From Desulfosudis oleivorans Hxd3 (GTDB lineage: Bacteria; Desulfobacterota; Desulfobacteria; Desulfobacterales; Desulfosudaceae): a stretch of DNA of 32,000 nucleotides. Position 1 is the stretch's first letter, and each line of letters opens with the position of its first letter. The DNA is taken from contig NC_009943.1 in NCBI RefSeq assembly GCF_000018405.1, positions 240,417 to 272,416 on the forward strand. Direction: 5' to 3'. The notes below the pieces were generated by a model. It did not search any database. It was not told where the DNA came from and was given only the letters and a program-made list of their open reading frames with translations. Shown here piece by piece: positions 12,208-30,436 of this stretch. Made by a program: the position numbers and the translations under genes.

Positions 12208-13362
12208 TCACTCATCCAGCGAGCCCCGCTTGACCATGGTCTTGCCGAACTTTTCCGATATGGCCGACACCGACCGGTCCACCTGCTCCCACCGGGAGTC
12301 GCGGCGCGCCTCCCCGTCAAATAACTCCATCTGCACGCCCCCGGAGGTCACCACCAGTTCGGTAACGCCCACGCCGATCAACCGGACCTTCTGGGCAAGG
12401 GTCTGTTTTTCCAGGAGGGCGGACGCCTGCCGGTAAATGGTGTCCGAGGACTGGACCGGAGCGTCCAGGGTGGTTTGCCGGGTGGTTTGGGAAAAGTCGG
12501 CATATTTTATCTTGATAAACACCACCCGGGCCCGGGCGTTCAGCTTCTGAAGATGGCGGCATACGTCTCCGGCCTGGCGCAGCAGATGGTGCCGCAGTTC
12601 CTGTTTTTCCGCCGTGTCCCGGGAAAGGGTGGTCTCCTCGCTCACCGATTTTGCCGGATGCCACGGCACCACCCGGGAATCGTCGATTCCCCGGGAGAGT
12701 TCTTTTAATCGCCGGCCGAATTTTCCCAGCTTTTTGGAAAGCACTCCGTCTGGCAGCCGGACCACGTCGCCCAGGGTTTCAATGCCCATCAGGGCCAGCT
12801 GTTTTTTTGTGACCGACCCCACCCCCGGCACCTTGTGAACGGGCAGGGTTTCGATAAACCGGTCCGCCGCTTCGGGCAAAATCACCATCAGGCCGTCGGG
12901 CTTGTTCATGTCCGAGGCGATCTTGGCCAGGAACTTGATCGGCGCCACGCCCACCGAGCAGGTGATGCCGAGCGTGTCAAAGACCTGCTTCTTGATATTT
13001 TTTCCAATGGTTTCCGGGGTGCCGTGCAGCCGTTCGCATCCCGAGATGTCGAGGTAGGCCTCGTCAATGGAGACCTGCTCCACCAGGGGAGAGACCGCGT
13101 CCAGGATCTCCATGACCCGGGCAGACACCTCCTTGTAGCGTTCCATGCGCGGGGGCGCCACAATCGCGTCAGGACAGAGCTTTAAGGCCCGGGACATGGG
13201 CATGGCCGAGTGCACGCCAAAGACCCGGGCCTCGTAGCTGGCCGCTGCCACCACCCCCCGGCCCGAGCTTCTGCCAACCACCACGGCACGGCCTCGCCAC
13301 TCGGGGTGGTCCAGCTGCTCTACCGACGCGAAAAACGCGTCCATGTCAACATGAAGAATCAT
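12208..13362 (-). CDS. dinB: DNA polymerase IV (Y-family translesion polymerase)
   Basis: MILHVDMDAFFASVEQ carries the catalytic Asp pair. SIDEAYLD, ASDMNKPDG and the length (384 aa) are typical of DinB. Confidence 0.92.
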   Translation of the reverse strand: MILHVDMDAFFASVEQLDHPEWRGRAVVVGRSSGRGVVAAASYEARVFGVHSAMPMSRALKLCPDAIVAPPRMERYKEVSARVMEILDAVSPLVEQVSIDEAYLDISGCERLHGTPETIGKNIKKQVFDTLGITCSVGVAPIKFLAKIASDMNKPDGLMVILPEAADRFIETLPVHKVPGVGSVTKKQLALMGIETLGDVVRLPDGVLSKKLGKFGRRLKELSRGIDDSRVVPWHPAKSVSEETTLSRDTAEKQELRHHLLRQAGDVCRHLQKLNARARVVFIKIKYADFSQTTRQTTLDAPVQSSDTIYRQASALLEKQTLAQKVRLIGVGVTELVVTSGGVQMELFDGEARRDSRWEQVDRSVSAISEKFGKTMVKRGSLDE

Positions 13363-13468: not shown

Positions 13469-13987
13469 TCAACATATCCGGTTCAGACCCAACACATACC
13501 GCACAAAGGCGGAGAGGTCCGGCAGGATCACGTAGGGTTTTTCCTTTTGTTCGCTCAAGGGCAGCATCCTGAAAACCGGGCCCCCGGCCAGAATGGTGGT
13601 AGCCCCCGGCATGCGCGGCGCAATCCCTTTATCCAGCAGGTCCATGGCATCTTCCCGCAGCACGGTCAGCCCGAGCAGGTCGGGACAACCGGTTTTGCAC
13701 TTTTCAACCAGAGCATCCGGCTCCATCAGCAGGCCCCACCGCTCTATTCGCATGCCGGCCACACCGGCGTAAAGCTCGATCAGGTCAAGGCCCATGCCGA
13801 TGCCATCGTCCAGGGTGGCGGTGGCAAGAACCGGGGGCCGGGGCCACAGGCCGGGAATGTTTTTGTCCTGCCGCCATTGGGCCATCTGTTTACCCACGGT
13901 GATCAGCCGGTGCCGGGAAAAAAGGCCCCGGGCCTCCCACGCGTTGCACAGCCGGGCAAGGGCCGTTTGCAGGCGGTTATCATGCAT
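13469..13987 (-). CDS. Cobalamin(B12)-binding-domain-like protein lacking the His ligand
   Basis: A Rossmann-like pattern, VLATATLDDGIGMGLDLI ... PDLLGLTVL ... TTILAGGPVF, parallels the D-x-H-x-x-G / S-x-L / G-G motifs of B12-binding domains. DDGIGMG has no His. The start overlaps the upstream NRDE gene stop by 8 nt. Confidence 0.5.
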   Translation of the reverse strand: MHDNRLQTALARLCNAWEARGLFSRHRLITVGKQMAQWRQDKNIPGLWPRPPVLATATLDDGIGMGLDLIELYAGVAGMRIERWGLLMEPDALVEKCKTGCPDLLGLTVLREDAMDLLDKGIAPRMPGATTILAGGPVFRMLPLSEQKEKPYVILPDLSAFVRYVLGLNRIC

Positions 13988-14765
13988 GGCCCACCTGGAA
14001 AGATATGCGTTTATCCTGGGTTTTCAGGCGGTCCCCGGCCCCGGGTTCAAACGTCCGCTCCACAAACAGGCCCCGGCCTTCGCCATCTATCAGGATCACC
14101 GACGAGCTGCGGGTGCCGTAATCCGGAGAGCGAATGAACATGGGCGAAAGCACCCGCTCCCAGGCGATGCCCACGCCCGTGTCCGGCAGCCGGTTGTCCG
14201 GCGGCATCGTTGTGTCGTGCAGAATCTCCAGCAGGTCGTCCGGAGAAAACGCTTTTCCCTTACTCAGCAGGCCCTTGAGCCTGTTCCTGCCGGTTTCCAC
14301 TTTGGGCCAGGGCGTGTCCAGCAGGTGGTTGGAAAGGCCGTGCAGGCCGGGGGAGATGCGGCGCACCTGCTGTTCCCTGTTGGAGTAATAAAACAGGCCA
14401 TCGTCCAGTGTTCCTGCGACCAGGTTGAAGCCGCTGTACGGCCGGTTTTCCTGCTGAAGATCAAGAAGGTATTGATCCGGAGCCGTAGTCCCCGAAAGAA
14501 AGTCGCTTACCAGCGCACCCCGTGAAGGGGCGGCCGGATTTGCCAGCCGGGGATCCCGGAAGTTGGTCACTGCGGCAAACCGGCCGGTGGTGGTAACACC
14601 CAGCCAGGTGCCGCCGGCCTTTTTGTCCCTTCCGGCCAGCACCCGGGGCGCGTCCTCCCAGAAGTCCAGCACCGCCGTGGGCCGGTCATAAAACTCGTCC
14701 CGGTTGGCAGCAAGGATAAACGGATAGTCGGCACGATACCGGTTGGCGATCAGGATAAGACACAT
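13980..14765 (-). CDS. NRDE family protein (TANGO2/DUF833-like)
   Basis: MCLILIANRYRADYPFILAANRDEFYDRPT contains the N-terminal Cys start and the literal NRDE signature. The start was chosen at 14765 rather than the ORF-track start at 14849. Confidence 0.8.
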   Translation of the reverse strand: MCLILIANRYRADYPFILAANRDEFYDRPTAVLDFWEDAPRVLAGRDKKAGGTWLGVTTTGRFAAVTNFRDPRLANPAAPSRGALVSDFLSGTTAPDQYLLDLQQENRPYSGFNLVAGTLDDGLFYYSNREQQVRRISPGLHGLSNHLLDTPWPKVETGRNRLKGLLSKGKAFSPDDLLEILHDTTMPPDNRLPDTGVGIAWERVLSPMFIRSPDYGTRSSSVILIDGEGRGLFVERTFEPGAGDRLKTQDKRISFQVGHA

Positions 14766-14882
14766 GAAAACAGTATATCCTTTTTTTGCGTTCCGGCAAC
14801 CGGGCAAAGGTAAAATCCGGAAAAAAAGCATGCTCTTTTTGATTGACATTTACCGCAAACTTTCATACACATACCCCACTGA

Positions 14883-15468: not shown

Positions 15469-16452
15469 ATGAAAAATCTGCCCCATGATTTTGAGGATTA
15501 TGTCAAAAAAGTGGCCGGGCTTTCCGTCACCTGGGGCGCCCCTGTGCCCAGAGCTTTGCCCCAATATCTGGCCCGGCAATATGCCCTGCATGAGGTTATC
15601 GTTGGTAAACGAATTTTTCTGGGTATCCTGCTCAAGGACAACAGCGAATTTAAGCCGGCCGCGTTTGTAAAGCACCTGCGGCAGCTTCTGGCGGATTCCG
15701 GCGGTCAGGAAGGGTATTGCCTGTTTGCCCGGGATTTGCCGGGGTATATCCGGCGACGCCTGGTGGAACGACAAATTCCCTTTGTCACGCCCGGCCAGCA
15801 GATGTATTGGCCGGCCCTGGGCCTGGCCGCCCAGGCCAGAAAAACCGGGAAAATGCCAGTTCCGGTGGAGGCCCTGTCTCCGGCCGCGCAAGCGGTTGTT
15901 ATTTACGCGTTAAACGGGAAAATAACCGGGCCGGTCACGCCCAAGGTGCTGGCCGGGGTTTTGGGATATGCCGGCATGACCATGTCCCGGGCGCTGGATG
16001 AGATCGAGGCCAATAACGTGGGCCGGGTGGCCCGCCAAGGCCGGGAACGGCTGCTTGATTTCCCGGGTGAACGCCGTGATCTGTGGCAGGCCGCCTTGCC
16101 GTATCTGCGATCTCCAGTGCGCAAAACAACGCGGATAAGAGAAAAAGCATGGCCTGTGAAAAGCCGCATTAAAGCCGGACAGACAGCGCTGGCGGAATTG
16201 AGTATGCTGGTCGCCCCTGCAGAGCCGGTCTATGCCATCGGTCGGCAGGCCTGGAAAAAACAGGCCAAAAGCATTGAACGCATTCCCGTGGAAGACGAAG
16301 GCACCTGCCGCGTTGAAATCTGGCGCTATGACCCAGCCCTGTTTGCCGAAGGCGGGAGGGTGGACCCGTTTTCCCTCTATCTCAGCCTGCGGGAAGAACA
16401 GGACGAGCGGGTTGAATCCGCCGCAGAAAAAATGGTGGAACAGGTCTTATGA
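15469..16452 (+). CDS. wHTH-containing partner protein, AbiEi-antitoxin-like (327 aa)
   Basis: A predicted winged HTH lies around VLGYAGMTMSRALDEIEANNVGRVARQGRERL. The stop overlaps the downstream nucleotidyltransferase start (ATGA at 16449-16452). TATAAT at 15434-15439 sits in an AT-rich leader. Confidence 0.45.
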   Translation: MKNLPHDFEDYVKKVAGLSVTWGAPVPRALPQYLARQYALHEVIVGKRIFLGILLKDNSEFKPAAFVKHLRQLLADSGGQEGYCLFARDLPGYIRRRLVERQIPFVTPGQQMYWPALGLAAQARKTGKMPVPVEALSPAAQAVVIYALNGKITGPVTPKVLAGVLGYAGMTMSRALDEIEANNVGRVARQGRERLLDFPGERRDLWQAALPYLRSPVRKTTRIREKAWPVKSRIKAGQTALAELSMLVAPAEPVYAIGRQAWKKQAKSIERIPVEDEGTCRVEIWRYDPALFAEGGRVDPFSLYLSLREEQDERVESAAEKMVEQVL

Positions 16453-17210
16453 TCATCGGCCTTGATAAATTTGCCGCGCACTTTTCCGGATATCGGGACC
16501 GGTATCTGCTCATTGGTGGCGCGGCCGTGTGGCTGATTCTGGAGGAGGCGGGTATTGAGCCGCGGGCCACCAGGGATCTGGATATTGTCCTTTGCCTGGA
16601 AGCCCTGGACCCGGATTTCGGGGCGGTTTTCTGGGATTTTATAAAAGCCGGGGGATACAAAATTCAGGAAAAAAGCACGGGAAAGAAAAACTTCTACCGG
16701 TTTGTGAAACCTTCGCAACCGGATTATCCGGTGATGCTGGAGCTGTTTGCCCGCCGGCCGGATGCCTTGACACTGCATGATGACAGTCATTTGACACCCA
16801 TCCCCACAAGTGAAGAGGCTTCCAGCCTTTCGGCTATTCTGCTGGATGATAATTATTATGACTTTCTTCATCGACACAAGCGGGCGATTGGGGGGATTTC
16901 CTTTGTCAGCGAATACGGCCTTATACCTCTCAAGGCCCGGGCCTGGCTGGACTTGACGCAAAGAAAAGCGGCCGGTGAAAACATCGACAGCCGCGATATT
17001 AAAAAACATAGAAACGATGTCTTGCGTCTATACCAGATTCTGTCGCCGGAGATCAAAATAGATGCGCCGGAAGCCATGCGCCGGGATCTGGATACTTTTC
17101 TGCGGCAAACCCAACCGGCATTGAGCCAGGAAATATTAAAGAGTCTTGGGGTGAGGGACGTGAATGTTGTCGATGTTATCCAGACGATCAGAATTGTATA
17201 TGGAATTTAA
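16449..17210 (+). CDS. Nucleotidyltransferase-fold protein, AbiEii/DUF1814-toxin-like
   Basis: LLIGGAAVWL ... RATRDLDIVL is an hG[GS] plus D-x-D NTase core. The C-terminal KARAWLDL...SRDIKKHRNDVLRL resembles the AbiEii third motif. The size (253 aa) and translational coupling to a wHTH protein fit type IV TA systems. Confidence 0.6.
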   Translation: MIIGLDKFAAHFSGYRDRYLLIGGAAVWLILEEAGIEPRATRDLDIVLCLEALDPDFGAVFWDFIKAGGYKIQEKSTGKKNFYRFVKPSQPDYPVMLELFARRPDALTLHDDSHLTPIPTSEEASSLSAILLDDNYYDFLHRHKRAIGGISFVSEYGLIPLKARAWLDLTQRKAAGENIDSRDIKKHRNDVLRLYQILSPEIKIDAPEAMRRDLDTFLRQTQPALSQEILKSLGVRDVNVVDVIQTIRIVYGI

Positions 17211-17825
17211 GGAAAGGCGAACCCATGCCGGCAAAAGATAAACAAACGATCTGTGACGCCCTGGTAAAAGCGATTCGCGGGGCCCCGGTTATAATCCGGA
17301 GTTCCAGACAGCGGCGGTCTGTCTCTTCCTGATTGAAAATTTCGCGCCCTTCAGGTTCAGTCCGGTATCCGAAGGGTTCTTTGAAAACGAAGGGTCAGCC
17401 TTGCCTCGGGATGTACTTCCGGAAAAGAAAAAATCAATCGGTCGTCTTTTAATTCCCGGATCAACTGCGCGAACAGTTGCGGCCGCTTGCGGATAATCTC
17501 CTGTATGTCTTTAGAAATTTTCCCAACATAAGGTGTCAAGAAAAACAATCGGTAGTATTTATCTGGCCCATTAATGTAAATAAAACTATTTACATTGACA
17601 TTTACATTATGGCGGGGGTACTGTTGTCTCCAGATTGACAGGTTTACCAATGATGATGAACTCGTAAAAAGTCTATTTGGAATGGCAAAGTAAAAAGTTC
17701 AAGATCAAGGCGTCGCAAATCCCGAGGAATGAGGCGTACTTGTCGTACGCCGCAGTGACGAGGGGTGCAGCGCAACGCAGATATTGGGCTTTTTACGAAG
17801 CCATCAATGATCGCATGGAGGCAGC

Positions 17826-18458
17826 ATGAGAGACTCCCTTACAGCCCGGCAGCAGCAGGTACTGGAATATTTTCAGCATGAGATCGCTGAGACCGGTGCA
17901 TCGCCAAGCCTGCGGCAGGCGGCGGATGCGCTGTCCGTCAGCCACACCGCCATATCCCAGGCACTGAAATTGCTGGAGAAAAAAGGCTACATTACCCGTC
18001 ATGGGAGATACAGTCGCGATATCCATGTGCTTAACCCCATGAACCAGTCAGCCGGCATGCACCGCTGGCGGGAAATTCCCGTTATCGGCGCCATTACTGC
18101 CGGGTTGCCCATGTATGCCCAGCAGGAATGGGAGGGCACCCTGGTTCTGGACCGGAGCTGCTTTCCCGGGGACAACCTTTTTGCCCTGAGGGTAAAAGGG
18201 GATTCCATGAAGGACGCTGCTATTTTAGACGGGGACCTGGTTATCTGCGAACCCCGCCAATTTGCGGAAAACGGTGAGATCGTGGTGGCCCTGGTGAACG
18301 GCGAGGAAGCCACGGTAAAACGGTTTTTCAAACGCCAGGACCATATTGAGCTGAAGCCCGAAAACCCTGCCTATGCCCCCCTTAAGCTGATGTTTGGTGA
18401 TGTGCTGATTCAGGGAAAGGTCATTGGCCTGCACAGGGATCAGCAAGGGCTTGTCTGA
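17826..18458 (+). CDS. lexA: LexA-family SOS repressor (S24 peptidase)
   Basis: N-terminal wHTH (LRQAADALSVSHTAISQALKLLEKKGYI). Ala-Gly cleavage site in VIGAITAGLP, catalytic Ser in KGDSM and Lys in EATVKRF. Confidence 0.9.
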   Translation: MRDSLTARQQQVLEYFQHEIAETGASPSLRQAADALSVSHTAISQALKLLEKKGYITRHGRYSRDIHVLNPMNQSAGMHRWREIPVIGAITAGLPMYAQQEWEGTLVLDRSCFPGDNLFALRVKGDSMKDAAILDGDLVICEPRQFAENGEIVVALVNGEEATVKRFFKRQDHIELKPENPAYAPLKLMFGDVLIQGKVIGLHRDQQGLV

Positions 18459-18488
18459 CATCCTTATTTTTAAACGGTAACACTCCAT

Positions 18489-19304
18489 ATGGTTGCATCT
18501 GGCGCACAGATTCTGGTCGGCACCTGCGGGTATTCCTATCCGGAGTGGAAAGACGCCGGCTTTTATGCCGAAGACACACCCTCCGGGAAAATGCTGGAAG
18601 CCTATGCCCGGCGGTTTTCCGTAACTGAGCTGAATTATACCTGGTATCAGATGCCCAAGGCCCCGGCGGTGGAGCGCATGTGCCGGAATGTACCGGAGAC
18701 CTTCCGGTTTGCCGCCAAGCTGAACCGCAAGCTGACCCATGAAGTGGAGCCCAACCAGTGGCGGCAGGAAGCCGCACAATACCGGGCGGGCATATCGCCC
18801 CTGGTGCAGTCCAACCAGTTGGCCGCCGTGCTGGTCCAGTTTCCCCCCTCGTTTCAGCGCACGCCGGCCAACAGATCATACCTGGCCGCCCTGCTGGATG
18901 AAATGGGCGACCTTCCCCTGGCCGTGGAGTTCCGGCATGTCTCCTGGGCAACAGACAAGGTATATGCCGCGTTTACCGAAAAAAAAGTCACCCTGGTGGC
19001 GGTGGATGTGCCGGACCTGGCCTGGCTCTATCCCTCGGTGGATGTGGTGACCAACCCGGACCTGTTTTATGTCCGGTTTCACGGCAGAAACGCCAAAGGG
19101 TGGAACGCCGGCAGCATGCAGCAGCAGTTTGACTATGATTATACCGCCGCAGAACTGTCCCCCTGGGCCGACCAGCGCATTCCGCGGATGGCCGCGCAGG
19201 CAGGGGCCGGCCTGGTGTTTTTCAATAACCATGTCCGGGCCCAGGCGCCGAACAACGCGCTCCAGCTTATTCAGATGCTGATACGGCAGGGCCTGTTTCA
19301 ATGA
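18489..19304 (+). CDS. DUF72 (YecE/UPF0759) family protein
   Basis: Family hallmarks are VGTCGYSYPEWKDAGFY, LVQFPPSF, AVEFRHVSW, YVRFHGRN, YDYDYTAAEL and VFFNNH. It starts 30 nt after lexA, and its stop overlaps the imuB-like start (ATGA). Confidence 0.85.
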   Translation: MVASGAQILVGTCGYSYPEWKDAGFYAEDTPSGKMLEAYARRFSVTELNYTWYQMPKAPAVERMCRNVPETFRFAAKLNRKLTHEVEPNQWRQEAAQYRAGISPLVQSNQLAAVLVQFPPSFQRTPANRSYLAALLDEMGDLPLAVEFRHVSWATDKVYAAFTEKKVTLVAVDVPDLAWLYPSVDVVTNPDLFYVRFHGRNAKGWNAGSMQQQFDYDYTAAELSPWADQRIPRMAAQAGAGLVFFNNHVRAQAPNNALQLIQMLIRQGLFQ

Positions 19305-20506
19305 TCCACCGTTTTTTGGAACGATCCATCATCCATATCAATGTGGCCCATTTTGCCGTGACCGTGGAGCAGACACTGGACGCCCGCCTTCGGGATCGGC
19401 CGGTGTTAATCGCGCCGGCCGGGGCCGCGCGAACACCCGTGTACGACATGAGCCAGGAGGCCTTTGCGTCCGGCATCCGCAAGGGCATGCCGGTGGCCGG
19501 CGCCCTGAAGGCCTGCCGGGACTGCAAGGTGGTGCCGCTTTACCCGGCCCGCTATGAACGGGCCATGCAGACCATCGCAAAATACGCCGGGGCGTATACC
19601 CCGGTGGTTGAACAGGGCAGCGGGGATGGCCACCTGTTTCTGGATGTGACCGGGACCAGCCGGCTGTTCGGGCCGCCGCCGGACATCGCCTGGCGCCTGG
19701 AACGGCAGATCAAAAAAGACTTCGGCCTGGCGCCGGCCTGGTCCGTGGCCGCCAATAAGCTGGTGGCCAAGGTGGCCACCCGCCTGGTAAAACCGGTGGG
19801 CGAATATATTGTCTGCCCCGGTGACGAGGCGCCCTTTCTGGAGCCCCTGCCCCTGGGTATTCTGCCCGGGGTGGAGCGGTCCGACCTGGACGCGTTTGCC
19901 ATGTATCACATTGGCCGGGTGAACCAGCTGCGGCCGTGGAGCCTTGCGCAGTTGCAGGTGGCCTTTGATACGCGGGCGCAGTTCCTGTTTGACACCATTC
20001 GGGGCATTGATCTTTCTGCGGTCACGTCCGGCCGCGAAAAGGAACCAACCGTTGCCATGGAACATGAGTTTTCCGAAGACACCAACCAGCGGGACCAGAT
20101 GGAACAGGTGCTCTACGGGCTTGTGGAAAAGGGAGGCCGCGCCCTTCGTGCCCGGCAGCGCTTTGCCCGGATCGCCGGTGTGGTGGTGGACTATTCGGAC
20201 GGCAGGCGGTGCGCGCGGCAGGTGTCCATAGCGCCGCCTACGGCCAATGACCCGGCGCTGTTTGAGGCGGCCCGCAGGGCGTTGTCCCTGGCGGTGGTCC
20301 GCCGGGTCCGGGTGAGGTATATCCGGCTGGTGCTGCGCAGGCTGCTCTTTCCCCCGGTCCAGCTGGACCTTTTTGACCATGACCGGCAGGAACGCCAGAC
20401 ACGCCTTCTGACCGCCATGGATAACATCCGGTCAAAGTTTGGGGACAGCGCCATCTACCCCGGCCGCATGGAGGCGCCTGGCCTGCAACAACTGTTTTAC
20501 GCGTGA
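19301..20506 (+). CDS. imuB: ImuB-like inactive Y-family DNA polymerase
   Basis: It is colinear with DinB-type polymerases (IIHINVAHFAVTVEQ, LFLDVTG, VAANKLVAKVA, LPGV). The catalytic Asp pair seen in dinB of this window (HVDMDAFF) is replaced by HINVAHF. It lies directly upstream of dnaE2 and overlaps it. Confidence 0.8.
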   Translation: MIHRFLERSIIHINVAHFAVTVEQTLDARLRDRPVLIAPAGAARTPVYDMSQEAFASGIRKGMPVAGALKACRDCKVVPLYPARYERAMQTIAKYAGAYTPVVEQGSGDGHLFLDVTGTSRLFGPPPDIAWRLERQIKKDFGLAPAWSVAANKLVAKVATRLVKPVGEYIVCPGDEAPFLEPLPLGILPGVERSDLDAFAMYHIGRVNQLRPWSLAQLQVAFDTRAQFLFDTIRGIDLSAVTSGREKEPTVAMEHEFSEDTNQRDQMEQVLYGLVEKGGRALRARQRFARIAGVVVDYSDGRRCARQVSIAPPTANDPALFEAARRALSLAVVRRVRVRYIRLVLRRLLFPPVQLDLFDHDRQERQTRLLTAMDNIRSKFGDSAIYPGRMEAPGLQQLFYA

Positions 20507-23500
20507 AACAAATGATCCCCCTGACAGTCAGATCCGGTTATTCGCTGATGTGGGGCACAGCCCCCATCAAGGAGGTGTGCCGCGTGGCCCGGCAGCAGGG
20601 ATATGATCGCCTGGCCCTGACCGACACGGACAACCTTTACGGGCTGTGGCATTTTCTGGACGCCTGCCGCCGGAACGATATCACGCCGGTTGTCGGGGCG
20701 GAACTTACCGACCCCGCCACAACAGACCGGGCCGTTCTTCTGGTAAAAAACCCGGAAGGCTACAAAAACCTGTGCCGGCTCATAACCGCCCGGCACCTTG
20801 AACCGGACTTTAAACTGGAAACAGCCATTGCCCGGCATGCTGATGGCCTGGCCGTGCTGACCCGCAATCCCTGCCATTTGAAGCAGTGGCATGAATCCGG
20901 TGTGGCGGTGTATGGCGCCATGCCCCGGCGGCCGATGTCGCTGTCCAGCCCGCTGTGTCAGACCGCCAGGTACTTAAATGTTCCCCTGGTGGCCACGCCC
21001 GGCAGCTTTTTTCTTTCTCCGCAAGACATGGATGCCCACCGGATGCTGCGCGCCATTGACCTGAACACCACGGTTGACAGGCTTGGCCCGTTAGAAGCGG
21101 CGCCCGGGGAAGCCTGGCTGGCATCCCCCCGGGAGTATGAGAAACGTTTTGAAGCCTGCCCGGAAGCTCTGGCCAACACCCGTCGCCTTTCGGAAACCCT
21201 GACGTTTACCGGCCCCGAATTCGGCCTGGTCATGCCCCCCTGGGAAAGCAAAACGGGCACGGACCCTGGCTCCGCCCTTCGGCAGGCCGCCTACCGGGGC
21301 GCTCAGGCGCGGTATGGCCGGGACCTTCCGGAGCCTGTCGCACGGCGCTTGGAGCACGAACTGAGTATCATTATTCAAATGCGCTTTGCCGCTTACTTTC
21401 TGGTGGTGCAAGACATTGTGCGGCTGAGCCCCAGGATTTGCGGCCGGGGATCGGGCGCGGCCTCCCTGGTGGCCTATTGCCTGCGTATCACCAATGTCTG
21501 CCCGATAAAGCACAACCTGTATTTCGAGCGCTTTTTAAACCCGGGCCGAAAGGACGCCCCGGATATTGACGTGGATTTTGCCTGGGATGAACGCGACACC
21601 GTCCTGGCAGCGGTGTTCGAGCGGTTTGGCGATCATTGTGCCATGGTCTGCAACCACGTGCGAATGCAGCCGAGAATGGCGGTCCGGGAGGTGGCCCGGG
21701 TATATGGCCTGACCGAAGCGGAAATCAGCCGGGTGACCAAAAAAATGCCGTGGTTCTGGCGGCAGGACACCGCCGGCCTGGACATCCTGCGGGAACTGTC
21801 AGAGCGCCCGGAATCCCGGGATCTGGACCTGCCCGCGCCCTGGCCCGGGATCATGGCCGTTGCCCGGAAAATCTGCGGCGCGCCCCGGTATCTTTCCGTC
21901 CATCCCGGCGGCGTGATCATCACCCCCCGGCCTGTCTGCGAATATGTTCCGGTGGAAAGGGCCGCCAAGGGTGTCCGGATTATCCAGTGGGAAAAAGACC
22001 AGGCCGAGGATGCCGGGCTGGTGAAAATCGACCTGCTGGGCAACCGGAGCCTGGCCGTGATCCGGGACGCCATTTACAACCTGCGGTCAAACAACCACTT
22101 GCTCGACGAATCCACGTGGGCGCCGGAGGACGACTTTGCCACCCAGGAGGCGGTGTCCCAGGGCAAAACCATGGGCTGTTTTTACATAGAGAGCCCGGCC
22201 ACCCGGCTGTTGCAGAAAAAGTCCCGGGTGGGGGACTTTGAACACCTGGTGATCCACAGCAGCATTATCCGGCCGGCAGCCAATGATTATATCCAGGAAT
22301 ACCTCCGCCGCCTGCACGGCGCGTCCTGGGACCCCATTCACCCGCTTCTGGCGGATGTGCTGGACGAGACCTTTGGCATCATGGTGTACCAGGAAGACGT
22401 GTCCCGGGCCGCTGTGTCCGTGGCCGGGTTTTCTCACGCCGATGCCGACGGCCTGCGCAAGGTCATGTCCAAAAAAGACAAGGACCATGTTCTGGCCGAT
22501 TTTTACCGGCGCTTTGCGGACGGGGCCGCCAAAAACGGGGTGACCCCGGAGAAGATTCGCGAGATATGGCGGATGATGATGAGCTTTTCCGGGTATTCCT
22601 TCTGCAAGCCCCACAGCGCCTCCTATGCACGGGTGTCGTTTCAGGCGGCCTGGCTCAAGACCCACTATCCTGCCGCGTTCATGGCCGCCGTAATCAGCAA
22701 CCAGGGCGGGTTTTACAGCACCTTTGCCTATGTCTCCGAGGCCCGTCGCTCCGGCATTACCATCCTGGCCCCGGACGTCAATGCAAGCGACATCCGATGG
22801 CAGGGCAACGGCAACACCATCCGGGTGGGGCTTTCTGCTGTCGGTCATCTGTCCCTTAAAACCATGGAAAAAACGCTTGCCCACCGCAAGGCCGCACGTT
22901 TTACCGGCCTGGAAGACTACATGGACCGGGTCCGGCCGGATGAGCCTGAAGCTCAGGCCCTTATTCAGAGCGGCGCCTTTGACGCGTTGTGCCCGGGCCG
23001 GTCCAGAAGCATGATCCGGTGGCAATGGGCCTGCTGGAAAAACAACCGCCCGCCAGCATCGTCCTCGCCCCTTTTGTTTGACACGGCTCCCGGGCCGGTG
23101 GTCCCGCCCCCGCAGATAACCGAAGACCCGCTGGAAAGATACCGGCAGGAGTTTTCTGTTTTGGGCTTTTTGTGTGACACCCACCCCATGACGCTGTATA
23201 AGACGGAACTGGAGGGCCGGCAGACCATCAAGGCCAAACACCTGGGCCGATACGCGGGCAAACGCGTCTGCGTGGCCGGCTGGTTGATCACCGGCAAGGT
23301 CGTGCGCACGAAAAACGGCGATCCCATGGAGTTTTTGACCTTTGAAGATGAAACCGACATCTTTGAAGCCACCTTTTTCCCAAAGACGTATACCCGGTTC
23401 TGCCACATGATCGACAGGGGAAGCCCCTTCCTCCTCTGGGGCACGGTGGAGACCAATTGGGGGGCTGTGACACTCACGGTGGAAAAAATAGAAGGCCTGC

Positions 23501-23523
23501 CGGACTACAATAACCGACTATGA
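20503..23523 (+). CDS. dnaE2: Error-prone DNA polymerase III alpha paralogue DnaE2
   Basis: 1006 aa with an N-terminal PHP domain (LTVRSGYSLMWGT, LALTDTDNLYG). Polymerase core motifs include DIDVDF, GGVII, KIDLLG, GCFYIES and FCKPHSASYA. A C-terminal OB fold is present. The GTG start overlaps the imuB stop (GTGA); an alternative ATG is at 20512. Confidence 0.9.
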   Translation: MKQMIPLTVRSGYSLMWGTAPIKEVCRVARQQGYDRLALTDTDNLYGLWHFLDACRRNDITPVVGAELTDPATTDRAVLLVKNPEGYKNLCRLITARHLEPDFKLETAIARHADGLAVLTRNPCHLKQWHESGVAVYGAMPRRPMSLSSPLCQTARYLNVPLVATPGSFFLSPQDMDAHRMLRAIDLNTTVDRLGPLEAAPGEAWLASPREYEKRFEACPEALANTRRLSETLTFTGPEFGLVMPPWESKTGTDPGSALRQAAYRGAQARYGRDLPEPVARRLEHELSIIIQMRFAAYFLVVQDIVRLSPRICGRGSGAASLVAYCLRITNVCPIKHNLYFERFLNPGRKDAPDIDVDFAWDERDTVLAAVFERFGDHCAMVCNHVRMQPRMAVREVARVYGLTEAEISRVTKKMPWFWRQDTAGLDILRELSERPESRDLDLPAPWPGIMAVARKICGAPRYLSVHPGGVIITPRPVCEYVPVERAAKGVRIIQWEKDQAEDAGLVKIDLLGNRSLAVIRDAIYNLRSNNHLLDESTWAPEDDFATQEAVSQGKTMGCFYIESPATRLLQKKSRVGDFEHLVIHSSIIRPAANDYIQEYLRRLHGASWDPIHPLLADVLDETFGIMVYQEDVSRAAVSVAGFSHADADGLRKVMSKKDKDHVLADFYRRFADGAAKNGVTPEKIREIWRMMMSFSGYSFCKPHSASYARVSFQAAWLKTHYPAAFMAAVISNQGGFYSTFAYVSEARRSGITILAPDVNASDIRWQGNGNTIRVGLSAVGHLSLKTMEKTLAHRKAARFTGLEDYMDRVRPDEPEAQALIQSGAFDALCPGRSRSMIRWQWACWKNNRPPASSSPLLFDTAPGPVVPPPQITEDPLERYRQEFSVLGFLCDTHPMTLYKTELEGRQTIKAKHLGRYAGKRVCVAGWLITGKVVRTKNGDPMEFLTFEDETDIFEATFFPKTYTRFCHMIDRGSPFLLWGTVETNWGAVTLTVEKIEGLPDYNNRL

Positions 23524-23541: not shown

Positions 23542-23570
23542 TTGACAGAAGCATGCCCGGTCATGATAAT
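23542..23570 (+). promoter_or_regulatory. Near-consensus sigma70-type promoter for the PLD-nuclease gene
   Basis: TTGACA (23542-23547), a 17-nt spacer, then GATAAT (23565-23570), about 64 nt upstream of the ATG at 23634. It sits at the abrupt GC-to-AT compositional switch after dnaE2. Confidence 0.5.
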
Positions 23571-23633: not shown

Positions 23634-24911
23634 ATGAGCATACAAATACTGAATAAAGATCATGGGCAGTCGGCTGGAAAGCTCATCAAGGAATTTGCGC
23701 AGACCCTTGATAGAAAAAAACAAAGAAGACATGAGCTTTGGATACTCTCATGTTATATCGATTTGGATTTAATAGAAAAATACGTTGATTATCTTCTGAA
23801 GAGTATCCGGCTGACAGAAGTCTTTTTAGCATTCAATTTCGCAGAAATCTATAAAGCAGCCCCCATTGAAACAGAAGACAAACTTAATTCCATTAAAAAA
23901 AATCTAAACGATATAAATATCAATTTTGAATGGAGGGTATTGGCCTCTTCCAAATTAGTTCACAGCAAAGGATATTCCCTAATTCAAAGATCAGGTGATA
24001 AAGTATCCGGAGGGGTCGTTCTCATAACCTCTGCGAACTTTACGAAGCCAGGATTCAAAGGCGATAATATTGAGATAGGATATGCTTCAAATAGAAAAAC
24101 GGATGTTCAAAATTTTGAAAAAACATACGATTATCTCTGGGAAAATTTGGGTGTAGATATAGGAGCAGCGATTTTCAGACAAGAAAAATATCTACTGCAG
24201 TTTGCATTGTTATCTTCTGGTTTATTTCTTCATAAATGGTCTGGAAGCTTGAGTCAGGACGTTGGTATAAAATACAAACTGACAGAACTCGCAAAAGAAA
24301 AAGGAACAATAGCTCCTGAATTGGCCGCAGTTGGATTTGAAACGGGTGATACCTTTACGAGGCAAGTTTTGCAGCTTGGCGACCTACCACAAAAGGAAGT
24401 GCCACGATCATTTATAACACGATTCACCATTGAAACTTACTGGGGGAGATGGTGCCCATCTGATGCTTGGAATACTCTCAGCGCAACATTTGAAGGAGCA
24501 AAACAATTTGTTGCACAATTCAAAGAAGCCACTAAAAAGTCTATTCTTTCAAAAATAAAAAAAGAAGCGCTTGAAATACAAAATGATCTGATTCATAAAA
24601 AGTTGATTAAGCCTGTGAAACCAGAACATTTGGATAATTGGATCCTTCGAATTCAAGAATTGCGCAATAACTATCGTCGTCTTGAACGATTTTTTACTGG
24701 ATATGAAGCACATGATCTTCCGTATTCTATTGAACAAAAGTCTGATGTTATCGACCTATTTGAAAGTATAGAAGAATCTATCGAGCTTACAAAAGCCACT
24801 AATATTGCAAAAGAAAAAATTGTGTTTGCACTAGATGATGCAAATCCTGATCTTATCAGGCTGACAGATGAAGAAAAGCAAATAATAAAAGATATGAGCA
24901 GCAGCGCTTAA
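23634..24911 (+). CDS. PLD-superfamily (single HxK motif) nuclease-like protein with a large uncharacterised C-terminal region
   Basis: SKLVHSKGYSLIQ ... GGVVLITSANFT matches the H-x-K-x4-D ... G-S-x-N motif of Nuc/BfiI-type PLD nucleases (His codon 23961-23963). About 230 C-terminal residues have no recognised motif. The gene is visibly AT-rich relative to its flanks. Confidence 0.65.
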   Translation: MSIQILNKDHGQSAGKLIKEFAQTLDRKKQRRHELWILSCYIDLDLIEKYVDYLLKSIRLTEVFLAFNFAEIYKAAPIETEDKLNSIKKNLNDININFEWRVLASSKLVHSKGYSLIQRSGDKVSGGVVLITSANFTKPGFKGDNIEIGYASNRKTDVQNFEKTYDYLWENLGVDIGAAIFRQEKYLLQFALLSSGLFLHKWSGSLSQDVGIKYKLTELAKEKGTIAPELAAVGFETGDTFTRQVLQLGDLPQKEVPRSFITRFTIETYWGRWCPSDAWNTLSATFEGAKQFVAQFKEATKKSILSKIKKEALEIQNDLIHKKLIKPVKPEHLDNWILRIQELRNNYRRLERFFTGYEAHDLPYSIEQKSDVIDLFESIEESIELTKATNIAKEKIVFALDDANPDLIRLTDEEKQIIKDMSSSA

Positions 24912-24914
24912 CAA

Positions 24915-24982
24915 CCGCATCAACTCGGACTGGGAAAAGCAGCCCCGCTTCGCTATGCTGCTTTTCCCAGCCGGTTATGCGG
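24915..24982. other. Nested inverted repeat / long stem-loop
   Basis: A perfect 14-bp stem, CTGGGAAAAGCAGC (24930-24943) pairing with GCTGCTTTTCCCAG (24957-24970), with a 13-nt loop. It is enclosed by CCGCAT (24915-24920) and ATGCGG (24977-24982). There is no adjacent T-tract, so it is not a canonical intrinsic terminator. Confidence 0.6.
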
Positions 24983-25011
24983 AGCGTTAGGTTTTAAATG
25001 TAAAAGTTAAT

Positions 25012-25036
25012 ATCTGCCCGGACACTTCCGGCAGAT
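25012..25036 (-). terminator. Possible terminator hairpin downstream of the WYL regulator gene
   Basis: ATCTGCCCGG-acactt-CCGGCAGAT (one bulged C). It is followed on the minus strand by an A/T-rich run with TTTT. Confidence 0.35.
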
Positions 25037-25128
25037 GGTAAAGCGCCCCCCGGCCAGTATTTTTATGCCCTGCAATCCAATGTTATTCCTTGCAAGCACC
25101 AACAATTCCGGAGTCGGTAGATCCCACA

Positions 25129-26121
25129 TTATTGATAACGCTTTCGAATATTCTCTGCTGCGACCTTTACCTCCTCCACCAACCAGTCCGGTGAAAGCAC
25201 CTTTACCTCGGCTCCGAAGGACATCACCCACGACACCACCTCCGGTTCGGACGAGGCGGTAAAGGTCAGCACAATCCCATCCCTTTTCTGCTCTATCTTC
25301 TGGTCCGGGCTCAGGCGCCGCTCTTCTGCAAAGGCCGCCGCATACCCGGTCAGCGACACCTCCACCTGGAAGGTCTCCTGCTTGATCACGCCAAAGGCCT
25401 GGTTGAAATGCTTTTCGAAATTGTAGGTTTTCGGAAAAACAAACTTCCGGTCCGTGGGTTCCACCGCCTTCAGCCGGTGCACGGCCAGCAGCGGGTCGAA
25501 CTCAAACTCGGTTTTCTTTGAGCCGGGATACCGGGCCATGCCCGCGTGCAGGTAAAGGGCGTTGTTGTGGGCAAACAGCTTGTAAGGCTTGATGTAAAAG
25601 GTCTTGCCTCTGCTTTCCATGGGGTTCTTATAGGTGATTTTGCACACCGTCTTTTCTTCCATGGCCTTCATCAGCACGCGAATGTCCTGCTGCCGGGGCG
25701 TGTAGTCGATGGTGCCGGGCAGAAAGGCGTCAAACAGGTCCGCGCCCGTGGCGCCGGCGGCCAGGGTGCTGCTTTTCTGAATGGCCCTTTCCGATTCCAT
25801 CAGCAGGTCTTTTCCCAGCAGGTGCCGCGTAAAGGCCAGGCACATCTGAAGCATGACCATTTCCGACGGCGACATGCTCAACGCGCCGGGCAGCTTCTCC
25901 GGCCGCTGAATATGGTAATAGCTTTTCCGGCCATCCTTGGTCTCCTCTATCGGCACATAAGCCCGGCTGATATGGTCCACCATTCGAATCACGGTCTGCT
26001 TGGAGCAATCCATCTCTTTGGCCAGGTCCACCAGGGACCGGCGCCTTCCCGTAAAATAGAGCTCGGCAAACAGCCAGATCAGGTTTTCTCCATAGGTTTT
26101 GTCCGATTTTTTTCTGGGCAT
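25129..26121 (-). CDS. WYL-domain transcriptional regulator (HTH-WYL-C-terminal extension; CapW/BrxR-like architecture)
   Basis: N-terminal HTH RSLVDLAKEMDCSKQTVIRMVDHI. The central WYL-type SH3-like domain is KITYKNPMESRGKTFYIKPYKLFAHNNALYLHA. The C-terminal segment is GAEVKVLSPDWLVEEV. It is divergent from the AAA+ gene. Confidence 0.8.
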   Translation of the reverse strand: MPRKKSDKTYGENLIWLFAELYFTGRRRSLVDLAKEMDCSKQTVIRMVDHISRAYVPIEETKDGRKSYYHIQRPEKLPGALSMSPSEMVMLQMCLAFTRHLLGKDLLMESERAIQKSSTLAAGATGADLFDAFLPGTIDYTPRQQDIRVLMKAMEEKTVCKITYKNPMESRGKTFYIKPYKLFAHNNALYLHAGMARYPGSKKTEFEFDPLLAVHRLKAVEPTDRKFVFPKTYNFEKHFNQAFGVIKQETFQVEVSLTGYAAAFAEERRLSPDQKIEQKRDGIVLTFTASSEPEVVSWVMSFGAEVKVLSPDWLVEEVKVAAENIRKRYQ

Positions 26122-26144
26122 GTCCCCTCCTTATGAAAAACCAT

Positions 26145-26169
26145 TATCATTCCGTTTTATGGAACGATA
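26145..26169. promoter_or_regulatory. Imperfect inverted repeat, candidate operator in the WYL/AAA+ divergent region
   Basis: TATCATTCC-gttttat-GGAACGATA (8 of 9 positions complementary). It is centred in the 130-bp divergent intergenic region. Confidence 0.3.
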
Positions 26170-26251
26170 GCCTGTTACGGTGGGCCTGTCAAGCGAAACG
26201 ACCCCACTTTGAAAGTAGATTTTTTGAAGAACACACTCAGGAGGAAAGACC

Positions 26252-28513
26252 ATGGCAATACCAAAACAGTTTCGACGCAAGCGGAGTATGAATATGGGGA
26301 TGAACCAAGCCTTTTTTTTCTCTCGCCCCCAGGTAGAGGACAAAAACGGACGTTTTGTTGTCAGAAAATGCTGTGACTATATGCTGCGGCTGATGGGAAA
26401 ACGATTCTCTTTAGATGCAGAGACCGTGGAGTTCATTTGCTGGCTGGTCGGTGAACAGCGAAGGGAAATCAGGAAATTCATCCTGACCCGGCTTCCGGAG
26501 GATGAGCAGGAATATTTTGATGAATTCCTCTCCCCGGATACTCATGATGACGGGATGTTTGGTATAACCATTGTGCAAACGCTGCAAATCTCAAAAGACC
26601 GAAGCATCGCCGCCGACTGCTTTCAATTTTTCAGCCAGATTTTGCAGCGCCGGCGAAAAGCACTGGCCGGCAACGGTAATTCCGGCCTGCAAAAAAGCTT
26701 TGATCAACTCCAGTCCATCTTCCGCCTCACAGACCTGGAGACGGAGCTGTGCCTTTTTCTCTTTATAATCAGCGCTTACGATACGCCGGAGAAATTTTTC
26801 GACGACCATCTGCACACAGACAGGTTTCAGGGGCGTGGTTTTCTCTGCACCGCGCTGAACGCATCCAAACATGAAATTAACCAGGCGATTGGCAAGACGC
26901 TGACGGCTGCCGGGCTGGTGGAAATTTCCGGAGGCTTTAAAAGCACCATCCGCTTGACAGATGAAGTACAAAACATCCTTTTTGATCCTGCCTGCGACAT
27001 ACTTCAGAAAACCAATTTAAAAGACGCTAAAAAACAACCGGCGCTTCCCCTGTCTTACCATTTTGTGCCGGAAGCCGATATCAGCCATATTCTTTCTCTG
27101 CTCTGCGGAAAAACCGATACCGCCACTCACATCCTCCTGTATGGCCCGCCAGGTACCGGCAAAACAAGCTTTGCGTATGGCCTTTCCCGCAAGCTGAATG
27201 ATCCGGTATATGAAATCACGCATGACAACTCCCAGGAGAATGACAGCAAAAGCCGACGCCTCTCCCTGACGGTCTCAATCAACAGCATGAACCGGGGCCA
27301 GGGCGCGATTTTTATCGTTGATGAGGCAGATAATCTGCTGAACACGGAACGCCACTGGATGATAAGCGGTGAAGTGCAGGACAAGGGCTGGCTCAATAAG
27401 CTGATGGACAAGCCGGGGCTGCGGATCATCTGGATTGTCAACGCCATCCATTCCATAGAACCGTCTGTAGCGCGCCGCTTTGCCTACAGCCGCCATTTTG
27501 AGCCGTTTACCTGCAAACAGCGGGAACAGCTCTGGGATAATGTGATCCGGAAAAATCGCTGCAAGCGTTTTTTTACCACCGAAGACCTGCGGCAACTGGC
27601 CCGGGAGTTTGATGCCAGCGCCGGTGTCATTGACATGGCCGTAAAAAAAGCAAAAGAAGCCGGCCATGCCGGCCGGGCTCCAATGCTTCAGGCGGTCCGG
27701 CAGGGGATTGAAGCCCACCAGGCCCTGGTCAATGGCGGCCATAAAAAACCCCCCAAAGAAGCAATCGATCACCGGTATTCTCTGGATGGGTTAAACATAT
27801 CCGCCGACATTCGGCAGGTAATGTTCCAGGCGGAACAATTCAGCCGGCACCTTAAAAATACCACCAATATGACCCACTATAATTTCAACCTGCTCCTTCA
27901 TGGACCACCGGGCTCGGGCAAAAGCGAATTTGCCCGCTACCTTGCGCAACACCTGGACCGGGAACTTCATGTTCGCCGCTCCAGCGACATCTTGAGCCCA
28001 TATGTAGGTGTGGCCGAAAAAAATATCCGCCAGTCATTTGACCAGGCCGCTCACCAGGGCGCTATCCTTTTAATTGACGAAGCCGACGCCCTGCTGTTTC
28101 CCCGGGCAAATGCCAGCCGCTCCTGGGAAATCAGCCACACGGCCGAACTGCTCACCGCCATGGAGCGGTTTCGCGGCCTGCTTATCTGCACCACCAACCG
28201 GCTGAACGGAATAGATTCTGCCGCCATCCGGCGATTTAACCATAAAATCAGATTCGACTTTCTCACGCCGGACGGCAGCTGGATCTTTTACAACAAAATG
28301 CTGACACCCCTGGCAAAACTCGCGCCGGATGACCGGAACATCAAGACCGTCAAAAACCTGCGCCGCCTGACCCCCGGTGATTTTAAGATCGTCCGGGACC
28401 GCTTTGCCTTTTATCCGAAAGAAGAGATCACCCATACCATGCTGGTTGACGCCCTGGGGCAGGAAGCCACCGTCAAACAGCAGCAAACAGGAGAAAAGCC
28501 GATTGGCTTTTAA
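26252..28513 (+). CDS. Tandem AAA+ ATPase with an uncharacterised N-terminal region of about 290 aa
   Basis: AGGAGG RBS lies 7 nt upstream. Module 1 has Walker A LLYGPPGTGKT (nt about 27143-27166), Walker B IFIVDEAD and VARRF. Module 2 has Walker A LLHGPPGSGKS (nt about 27902-27925), Walker B ILLIDEAD and the SRH-like TTNRLNGIDSAAIRRF. Confidence 0.85.
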   Translation: MAIPKQFRRKRSMNMGMNQAFFFSRPQVEDKNGRFVVRKCCDYMLRLMGKRFSLDAETVEFICWLVGEQRREIRKFILTRLPEDEQEYFDEFLSPDTHDDGMFGITIVQTLQISKDRSIAADCFQFFSQILQRRRKALAGNGNSGLQKSFDQLQSIFRLTDLETELCLFLFIISAYDTPEKFFDDHLHTDRFQGRGFLCTALNASKHEINQAIGKTLTAAGLVEISGGFKSTIRLTDEVQNILFDPACDILQKTNLKDAKKQPALPLSYHFVPEADISHILSLLCGKTDTATHILLYGPPGTGKTSFAYGLSRKLNDPVYEITHDNSQENDSKSRRLSLTVSINSMNRGQGAIFIVDEADNLLNTERHWMISGEVQDKGWLNKLMDKPGLRIIWIVNAIHSIEPSVARRFAYSRHFEPFTCKQREQLWDNVIRKNRCKRFFTTEDLRQLAREFDASAGVIDMAVKKAKEAGHAGRAPMLQAVRQGIEAHQALVNGGHKKPPKEAIDHRYSLDGLNISADIRQVMFQAEQFSRHLKNTTNMTHYNFNLLLHGPPGSGKSEFARYLAQHLDRELHVRRSSDILSPYVGVAEKNIRQSFDQAAHQGAILLIDEADALLFPRANASRSWEISHTAELLTAMERFRGLLICTTNRLNGIDSAAIRRFNHKIRFDFLTPDGSWIFYNKMLTPLAKLAPDDRNIKTVKNLRRLTPGDFKIVRDRFAFYPKEEITHTMLVDALGQEATVKQQQTGEKPIGF

Positions 28514-28528
28514 TAACAACAAAAAAAA

Positions 28529-28658
28529 CGTCATTGCCAGAAACAACTCCACGTGGCAATCTTCCCGCAGTGAACGTCAATACGAGGAGCGATAGCGACG
28601 AAGCAATCTCCACCGCATTCCCCGTCAATGCGAGGAGCAACGCGACGAAGCAATCTTG
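28529..28658. repeat. Three imperfect direct repeats (period about 47 bp) in the ATPase-nuclease spacer
   Basis: R1 (28575-28611) is CGTCAATACGAGGAGCGATAGCGACGAAGCAATCTCC. R2 (28623-28658) is CGTCAATGCGAGGAGCAACGCGACGAAGCAATCTTG, nearly identical. R0 (28529-28565), CGTCATTGCCAGAAACAACTCCACGTGGCAATCTTCC, is a degenerate third copy sharing CGTCA(A/T)TGC ... GCAATCT. Confidence 0.7.
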
Positions 28659-28678
28659 TTCTTTAAAAGGAAAAAAAC

Positions 28679-30169: not shown

Positions 30170-30173
30170 TCTT

Positions 30174-30189
30174 CCGGCTTGCCGGTTTT
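30174..30189 (+). terminator. Weak intrinsic terminator after the DUF2779 gene
   Basis: CCGGC-tt-GCCGG followed by TTTT, 5 nt after the stop codon. The stem is short, so confidence is low. Confidence 0.35.
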
Positions 30190-30436
30190 CCTTGGCCCAT
30201 GCAGCCAGAATGCAAACCGGACTATTTGGAAAATCGTATTTCAATGATCCACTTACGCGCCATAATCGGGTCAAAATATGACCCAAAACCGGGCAGATGC
30301 GCCTGGAACGGTTGCGTCTCCTTGCGCGACCTGGCCCAACTGGTCAATATGGGCATTCTTCAAAAAATCCCGGCGGCGGCCGCAGCACCAGCTAAGACCT
30401 GGTCTGGCCTGGGGGCCCGGGAAAAATTTAGCAACA

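Follow-up and report, generated by a model that had tools for sequence, protein, structure and literature searches.

A class of DnaE2 cassettes that lack ImuA was described by Timinskas and Venclovas (2019, NAR, PMC6511836), in which an inactive Y-family polymerase (iPolY) of the "gbDinB2-like (other inactive)" group, and not ImuB, accompanies the error-prone C-family polymerase DnaE2. Members of this group were listed from Nitrospira, Desulfuromonas, Pelobacter, Geoalkalibacter, Geobacter, Syntrophobacter and Sphaerochaeta, with operons of the form LexA->iPolY->DnaE2 or iPolY->DnaE2 and no gene between. Only for D. oleovorans, whose operon was written "LexA->{1}->iPolY->DnaE2", and for Desulfocapsa sulfexigens was one additional gene shown, as {1}, and left unnamed. 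imuA was found neither in the variant operons nor in their whole genomes, and it was proposed that RecA stands in for ImuA by way of a RecA-NT-like motif (PMC6511836). Here, the D. oleovorans cassette was analysed within a stretch of 32,000 nucleotides (nt) from the genome of Desulfosudis oleivorans Hxd3 (NC_009943.1, positions 240,417 to 272,416 of the forward strand), hereafter called the window. The unnamed gene is shown to encode a protein of the DUF72/YecE family, and the cassette as found in Desulfobacterales almost always includes it. We consider it somewhat probable that the operon is a LexA-controlled iPolY-DnaE2 mutasome cassette, devoid of ImuA and of the ImuB-C domain, with a nuclease-type DUF72 enzyme that serves the mutasome.

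The DUF72/YecE family is large, with 8,314 matching representatives (E<=1e-3) after clustering at 50% identity. The Protein Data Bank (PDB) holds DUF72 structures only for TM1631 (1VPQ) and EF0366 (1VPY/1ZTV), released in 2004-2005 and labelled hypothetical or DUF72. No experimental function of DUF72, YecE or TM1631 was found in the searchable literature, in which E. coli yecE is mentioned solely as a site of phage integration. An in silico study (Konc et al. 2013) predicted TM1631 to bind and cut DNA in the manner of endonuclease IV. More recently, DUF72 was reported by the Venclovas laboratory (2025, PMC11791011) to be enriched beside polB2 translesion operons, in 119 of 1823 neighbourhoods, where the RecA-like iRadA is also found, and the DUF72 fold was called closely related to that of UV damage endonuclease (UVDE).

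The lexA-DUF72-iPolY-dnaE2 cassette of strain Hxd3

The cassette consists of four co-directional open reading frames (ORFs) on the + strand, with products of 210, 271, 401 and 1006 amino acids (aa), respectively.

17826..18458, + strand: lexA, with winged helix-turn-helix (HTH) and S24 peptidase domains (TIGR00498, PF01726, PF00717)
18489..19304, + strand: DUF72/YecE-family TIM-barrel protein of 271 aa (PF01904), of a cassette-specific subfamily and predicted to be an active enzyme
19301..20506, + strand: inactive Y-family polymerase, gbDinB2-like iPolY (ABW66046.1), with IMS, IMS_HHH and IMS_C domains
20503..23523, + strand: dnaE2, ImuC-type error-prone C-family polymerase (ABW66047.1), assigned by Pfam architecture and Table S4 of PMC6511836

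The stop codon of lexA (TGA, 18456-18458) and the ATG of the DUF72 gene at 18489 are separated by exactly 30 nt. The DUF72 and iPolY genes overlap in ATGA (19301-19304) and the iPolY and dnaE2 genes in GTGA (20503-20506), so that the gaps are 30, -4 and -4 nt. An alternative start of dnaE2 at the in-frame ATG 20512 instead of GTG 20503 would turn the second overlap into a 5-nt gap, which is still tight. The initial annotation of the window, made without database searches, had noted the four co-directional genes, the 30-nt gap and both overlaps, and all of these are present. Its reading of a single LexA-linked operon with a genuine DUF72 protein is supported, and profile searches showed no similarity of the latter to RecA or ImuA. 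The 271-aa protein matched PF01904 with 200.7 bits (threshold 25.3; E 4e-59) over residues 26-263 of 271 and profile positions 1-217 of 217, and every DUF72 motif that had been quoted occurs in the translation. Nor did any window ORF screened against Pfam and NCBIfam give a RecA/ImuA-like match, in agreement with the earlier statement that the window holds no imuA-like ORF.

LexA scored 186.9 bits against the TIGR00498 equivalog in the NCBIfam profile search (cut-off 110.95, E 3e-55), and the features of self-cleavage are found in its translation: the Ala-Gly site in ITA/GLP, the Ser in GDSM and the Lys in VKRF.

The cassette Y-family protein (401 aa) is letter-for-letter identical to ABW66046.1 of Desulfococcus oleovorans Hxd3, as printed in the supplement of PMC6511836 (Tables S2 and S4). 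In Table S4 ABW66047.1 is listed as DnaE2, and the {1} gene of the table is the DUF72 gene. The cassette class and the Hxd3 operon itself are thereby already known from the 2019 supplement, with the DUF72 gene unnamed. In iPolY the catalytic residues D8, D10 and E104 are replaced by N, A and H, respectively, and 61-62 of 62 orthologues have these changes; all NCBIfam models of Pol IV score far under their cut-offs for the cassette protein. A clamp-binding motif of the QLxLF type, QLDLF, is kept at aa 354-358, and the RecA-NT-like motif RQERQTRLLTAMDNIRSKFGDSAIYPGR at aa 362-389 is conserved in the orthologues. Since only 12 aa remain after the latter motif, iPolY is without an ImuB-C domain. 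The name imuB used in the initial annotation is therefore only loosely right for what is a published gbDinB2-like inactive PolY, and the canonical ImuABC cassette is the wrong reference frame for the Hxd3 operon. A genuine DinB (Pol IV) is encoded at 12208-13362 on the - strand, 4.5 kb upstream of the cassette; it is above the cut-off of NF002677 with 396 bits and is catalytically intact, retaining D/D/E. The dinB gene adjoins a TANGO2-family gene (13980-14849, - strand).

The 1006 aa of DnaE2 comprise PHP, pol3_alpha, finger, HHH_6 and OB domains (Pfam) and terminate at the OB fold, without the tau-binding C-terminal domain, while PDIDVDF and KIDLLG, the Asp motifs of the palm, are kept. Scores were 574 bits for NF004225 ('error-prone DNA polymerase') and 659 bits for PRK05673, both under the cut-off.

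Conservation of the cassette in Desulfobacterales

Scanning species-representative genomes with a DUF72 alignment gave 540 loci. Nearly all of the best 80 were from Desulfobacterales or from metagenome-assembled genomes (MAGs) of Desulfobacterota, with identities of 59-84%. Only loci with enough flanking DNA, termed informative, enter the synteny counts. Among the DUF72-anchored loci the dead polymerase was directly downstream in 66/66 and lexA directly upstream in 73/73, dnaE2 was present in 56/57, and the gene order was invariant throughout. In a survey of metagenome contigs anchored on iPolY, DUF72 was directly upstream in 63 of 66 loci. The four-gene cassette is kept in well over a hundred Desulfobacterales genomes. 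The adjacency of DUF72 and the polymerase is thus not unique to Hxd3, and its recurrence in essentially every informative related locus places the arrangement far beyond chance.

Relatives without DUF72 were few. In L142, L154 and L146, the last of which has little upstream DNA, lexA abuts the polymerase, and in L122 neither lexA nor DUF72 precedes iPolY-dnaE2. L161 likewise has all four genes together with this operator (described below), although its DUF72 is only 41% identical to that of the window. Median identities were 64% for DUF72, 62% for LexA, 62% for DnaE2 and 54% for the dead polymerase, which makes DUF72 the most conserved of the four. The cassette-type DUF72 forms a discrete subfamily: when 1.8 billion cluster representatives were searched exhaustively, one full-length representative was 63% identical and the others at most 43%.

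Variants of the cassette were also observed. The chromosome of Desulfobacterales bin60 (L018, CP070694.1) has lexA-DUF72-iPolY with no dnaE2 within 8.6 kb downstream, the sole such informative DUF72-anchored locus. Two cassettes occur on one contig in L078 (591-7216 and 10001-15589), the second without its own lexA, and L059 and L069 are two copies on separate contigs of one MAG. In a divergent relative (L163 and L164, 12070-14493) a gene for a DinG/XPD-like helicase (DEAD_2, Helicase_C_2) overlaps the dnaE2 stop, giving a five-gene lexA-DUF72-iPolY-dnaE2-helicase unit in which another repair enzyme has been added to the cassette.

The candidate operator and the predicted transcription unit

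A conserved block was identified upstream of lexA.

17573..17624, + strand: candidate promoter/operator of the cassette, with the repeats TTTACAT-N5-TTTACAT at 17589-17607

In the block, TTTACATTGACATTTACAT(T), TTTACAT recurs as a direct repeat every 12 bp, in two and often three copies, and the block overlaps the -35 box; an inverted copy, AATGTAAAT, is located at 17573-17581. The -35 hexamer TTGACA (17595-17600) is embedded in the repeats and is followed 18 nt further by a weak -10 hexamer, TACTGT (17619-24). In the window there is a single perfect match to the operator, against 0.07 expected, and a search of the window found none upstream of its other genes, dinB included. Of 72 regions upstream of lexA, 44 could be aligned over the block and a TATAAT-like hexamer about 17 nt on, and 61 contain the core 8-mer. 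The related loci, 1.66 Mb in all, gave 163 matches, of which 154 were no more than 450 nt upstream of lexA and 8 were 550-700 nt upstream of it; the remaining one immediately precedes iPolY-dnaE2 in L122, a locus without lexA. A palindromic LexA box was also sought by enumeration of dyads, which gave nothing general; the conserved signal is the direct repeat. Judged by its position and repeats, the block probably is an autoregulated operator that occludes the promoter, and we infer that LexA binds it. It is thus a candidate for a non-palindromic, cassette-specific LexA operator in Desulfobacterales.

No sigma-70-like promoter was predicted on the + strand inside the cassette by the promoter scan. 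A strong promoter-like site is located at 23542-23570, past the stop codon of dnaE2, so the next gene has a promoter of its own. Both observations fit a single transcription unit of four genes.

The DUF72 protein

In searches by sequence against the PDB, the window DUF72 protein matched 1VPQ (1.9e-52) and 1VPY. An AlphaFold2 model (pLDDT 86.6) predicts an eight-stranded beta/alpha (TIM) barrel, for which Foldseek gave template modelling (TM) scores of 0.78-0.84 to the DUF72 crystal structures. Outside the family, the best TM-scores in the PDB were those of UVDE (0.57) and M. tuberculosis endonuclease IV (0.54/0.58), where values of about 0.55 indicate likeness at the superfamily level only.

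Alignment of 62 diverse representatives revealed 14 family-invariant columns, all of which are present in the window protein. The invariant residues include E47, E147, D173, R196, H198, R200 and N247, and the near-invariant K77, H84, Q117 and R149 are kept as well. Because every family-invariant residue is retained, the window DUF72 is most probably an active enzyme and not a degenerate scaffold. In a distant representative, P0253 (603 aa), DUF72 is fused to DUF4130, a domain that we take to be associated with DNA repair. PADLOC gave no match for DUF72 as a defence gene.

Insertions in the cassette and the surrounding window

Two further features lie just upstream of the lexA coding sequence, one of them resembling a miniature inverted-repeat transposable element (MITE).

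17655..17804, strand not assigned: MITE-like element, about 150 nt long, inserted into the 5′ untranslated region (UTR) of lexA and separating the operator/promoter from the start codon
15469-16452 and 16449-17210, + strand: two ORFs (327 and 253 aa) that overlap each other and closely precede the cassette, with no Pfam, NCBIfam or PADLOC match

The MITE-like element is flanked by the target duplication CAATGAT (17648-17654 and 17805-17811) and has imperfect terminal inverted repeats, GATGAACTCGTAAAAAG and CTTTTTACGAAGCCATC. By alignment it is missing from the closest relatives, L001 and L002, and copies with 75-86% identity were found in 16 other Desulfobacterales loci, often in intergenic gaps of the same cassette. 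The distance from the operator to the ATG of lexA is 238 nt in the window and about 80 nt in the closest relatives, the longer distance being due to the insertion of the 150-nt element in the 5′ UTR. The Rfam scan of the region gave nothing meaningful, and no long repeats were found in the window. The two overlapping ORFs were considered as ImuA candidates and rejected, as they are not RecA-like.

The gaps of the relatives were also searched for a hidden imuA or a standalone ImuB-C gene, but the gap ORFs were small genes, a ROK kinase and noise, none of them conserved. The small genes encode four-helix-bundle (23S-IVS-like) and GxxExxY-type proteins (L006, L011, L017, L024, L025, L031, L039, L041-L043, L048, L051, L070 and L074), and in L066 and L076 the ROK-family kinase gene is located between the polymerase genes. 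The gaps have been occupied repeatedly, as if small selfish elements inserted by preference in this operon.

Downstream of dnaE2, at 23634-31645, the GC content of the window falls to 0.385 at its lowest, and the genes resemble a defence or mobile island. They include a PLD-like nuclease (weak matches only), a WYL/WCX regulator, a double AAA ATPase with IetA-like matches, a DUF2779 protein with a weak Cas4-like match and a protein with weak HSDR_N and Suv3_N matches.

Discussion

The working of the Hxd3 cassette may be depicted as follows. LexA would repress its own operon through the TTTACAT direct repeats, which overlap the -35 box and the spacer, and upon DNA damage its RecA-stimulated self-cleavage would lead to co-expression of the four genes, with DUF72, iPolY and dnaE2 translationally coupled. 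The dead Y-family protein would act as an adaptor that binds the beta clamp by QLDLF and RecA by its RecA-NT-like motif, RecA thus taking the canonical place of ImuA, and would recruit DnaE2 for error-prone synthesis. The DUF72 protein is predicted to be a catalytically competent TIM barrel and would most likely be a metal-dependent nuclease akin to UVDE and endonuclease IV. It might nick beside lesions or clean blocked 3′ ends, and so provide a 3′-OH entry point or a gap to be filled by DnaE2. The most likely role of DUF72 would accordingly be that of a co-induced enzyme processing DNA lesions or DNA ends for the mutasome. This would be analogous to non-replicating Caulobacter, in which DnaE2 is reported to act on damage in coordination with nucleotide excision repair (NER; PMC8102061).

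It could be held that the four genes are merely neighbours and that DUF72 is a passenger, separately transcribed and outside LexA regulation. The large gaps of many relatives, colonised by MITEs and small selfish genes, would agree with this, as would the weak -10 hexamer of the window, where a simple scan did not call the lexA promoter. We find it highly improbable in view of the 30, -4 and -4 nt spacing in the window, the lack of any + strand promoter-like site within the cassette, the gene order that is invariant in all informative loci and the almost exclusive location of the operator at the cassette head. A second possibility concerns ImuA, in whose position the initial annotation had placed DUF72. 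In gene order this is correct, DUF72 being second after lexA; the correspondence is positional only, as sister cassettes have no gene there. There is no ImuA slot to fill, because the sister lineages have LexA->iPolY->DnaE2 with nothing between and no imuA reported, and DUF72 must be regarded as an add-on since both the ancestral/sister cassette and the relatives L142, L146 and L154 are without it. The gene is thus a lineage-specific extra inserted in Desulfobacterales. A non-catalytic, structural DUF72 that bridges the dead polymerase and DnaE2, or regulates them, in place of ImuA would be in line with this position and the translational coupling to iPolY, with the lack of imuA in the window and in the genomes reported for the cassette class, and with the nearly obligate synteny; the discrete cassette-specific subfamily could reflect adaptation to partners. 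Such a substitute is nevertheless disfavoured and in our opinion improbable. The TIM barrel is unrelated to the RecA fold of ImuA, every family-invariant residue of catalytic type is kept, which is unexpected for a pure scaffold, and the cassettes of Nitrospira, Geobacter, Syntrophobacter and Sphaerochaeta, which lack ImuA, lack DUF72 too, as do close relatives. The RecA-NT-like motif of iPolY moreover offers RecA as the replacement for ImuA, and in PolB2 operons DUF72 accompanies the RecA-like iRadA and does not replace a RecA-like subunit.

The initial annotation had left the choice between an ImuA substitute and an added repair enzyme. The latter fits all observations, and a lesion-incising or 3′-end-cleaning nuclease is therefore proposed here; a role of DUF72 in DNA damage is a reasonable prediction. 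Several findings weigh against a nuclease that serves the mutasome. None of the 62 DUF72 members matched UvdE or AP_endonuc_2 in Pfam even at E<=5, and hhalign gave a probability of 0.3 for DUF72 with E. coli Nfo (endonuclease IV). No demonstration of nuclease activity for any DUF72 protein was found in the literature, sugar epimerases, lyases and glycosidases reach similar TM-scores in Foldseek, and the fusion of DUF72 to an RluA-type pseudouridine synthase in P0222 (727 aa) hints at RNA. A DUF72 that is 60% identical to that of the window (P0354; L165, 1213-2022) is encoded outside any polymerase cassette, so the subfamily is occasionally uncoupled or mobilised. The intergenic gaps range from 0 to 1200 nt in the relatives and are of 100-1200 nt in many, and strict co-transcription is therefore not guaranteed everywhere. 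The neighbours of P0354 encode DUF3024, an HTH protein and a phage-type integrase.

The missing reports of nuclease activity, the comparable Foldseek scores of the sugar enzymes and the pseudouridine synthase fusion would also agree with an SOS-co-induced DUF72 enzyme that acts independently of the mutasome on a substrate other than lesion DNA, such as RNA, a damaged nucleotide, a sugar or a metabolite, and most DUF72 genes elsewhere are indeed found outside polymerase operons, E. coli yecE being an example. We regard this as rather unlikely, given the tight and deep synteny with overlap into iPolY across more than 130 loci, the second and independent link to another translesion system (PolB2), and UVDE and endonuclease IV being at the top of the non-family TM-scores. 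The fusion to DUF4130, with its presumed repair association, speaks in the same direction. A nuclease-type DUF72 that serves the mutasome remains the reading that we prefer.

What appears to be new in the searchable literature is the identity of {1} as DUF72, its near-obligate membership in Desulfobacterales, the cassette-specific subfamily and the direct-repeat operator. The link between DUF72 and damage-inducible translesion operons drawn in the initial annotation is new only in part, as it had already been noted for PolB2 operons in 2025. No stronger contextual clue to the role of DUF72 is so far available than its near-obligate, LexA-linked and translationally coupled tie to two mutagenic polymerase genes, a tie that names concrete substrates and partners. 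DnaE2 cassettes without ImuA or ImuB-C can evidently gain dedicated accessory enzymes, here DUF72 and, in one relative, also a DinG/XPD-like helicase. One operon may accordingly link error-prone synthesis to excision or to the processing of ends. More tentatively, and with doubt prevailing on our side, DUF72 proteins may be an unrecognised class of DNA-damage nucleases, of which the Desulfobacterales subfamily has become a fixed part of a DnaE2 mutasome without ImuA, forming a "cut-and-copy" module with it. In such a module DUF72 would incise or clean lesion DNA and pass the 3′ end to the clamp-bound iPolY-DnaE2 complex. If true, this would be the first function for a family spanning E. coli (YecE) to archaea, and it would explain the presence of DUF72 beside two unrelated translesion polymerase systems.

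Comparison with known systems

The gbDinB2-like iPolY-DnaE2 cassette (PMC6511836) is the same system as that of Hxd3, with ABW66046.1 among its listed members, LexA before, DnaE2 after and neither ImuA nor ImuB-C. As published, its core was LexA->iPolY->DnaE2 and the extra gene was given only as "{1}", whereas here this gene is a conserved DUF72 and the cassette has a dedicated candidate operator. The canonical lexA-imuA-imuB-dnaE2 cassette of Pseudomonas, Caulobacter and Mycobacterium shares with the Hxd3 operon the linkage to LexA, a dead Y-family protein paired with DnaE2 and, presumably, damage-induced mutagenic synthesis. It differs in that Hxd3 is without ImuA, has a Y-family protein without ImuB-C and carries a TIM-barrel DUF72 gene in second place.

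The PolB2-iRadA-PPB2 operons, with DUF72 and SRAP as accessories (PMC11791011), likewise have DUF72 beside a damage-inducible, sometimes LexA-linked, multisubunit translesion polymerase. That polymerase is of the B-family and non-homologous, and DUF72 occurs in about 6.5% of its neighbourhoods compared to nearly 100% here. UVDE and endonuclease IV, the xylose-isomerase-like repair nucleases, are eight-stranded TIM barrels like the one modelled for DUF72, also with acidic and His residues conserved where the strands end. The structural likeness (TM 0.54-0.58) is at the superfamily level, and neither sequence nor profile similarity to them was found. Finally, the NER-coupled gap filling by DnaE2 in non-replicating Caulobacter (PMC8102061) offers a precedent for DnaE2 working with an excision pathway. 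NER is encoded elsewhere in that case, whereas in Hxd3 the putative nuclease would be located inside the operon, and the comparison is one of analogy only.

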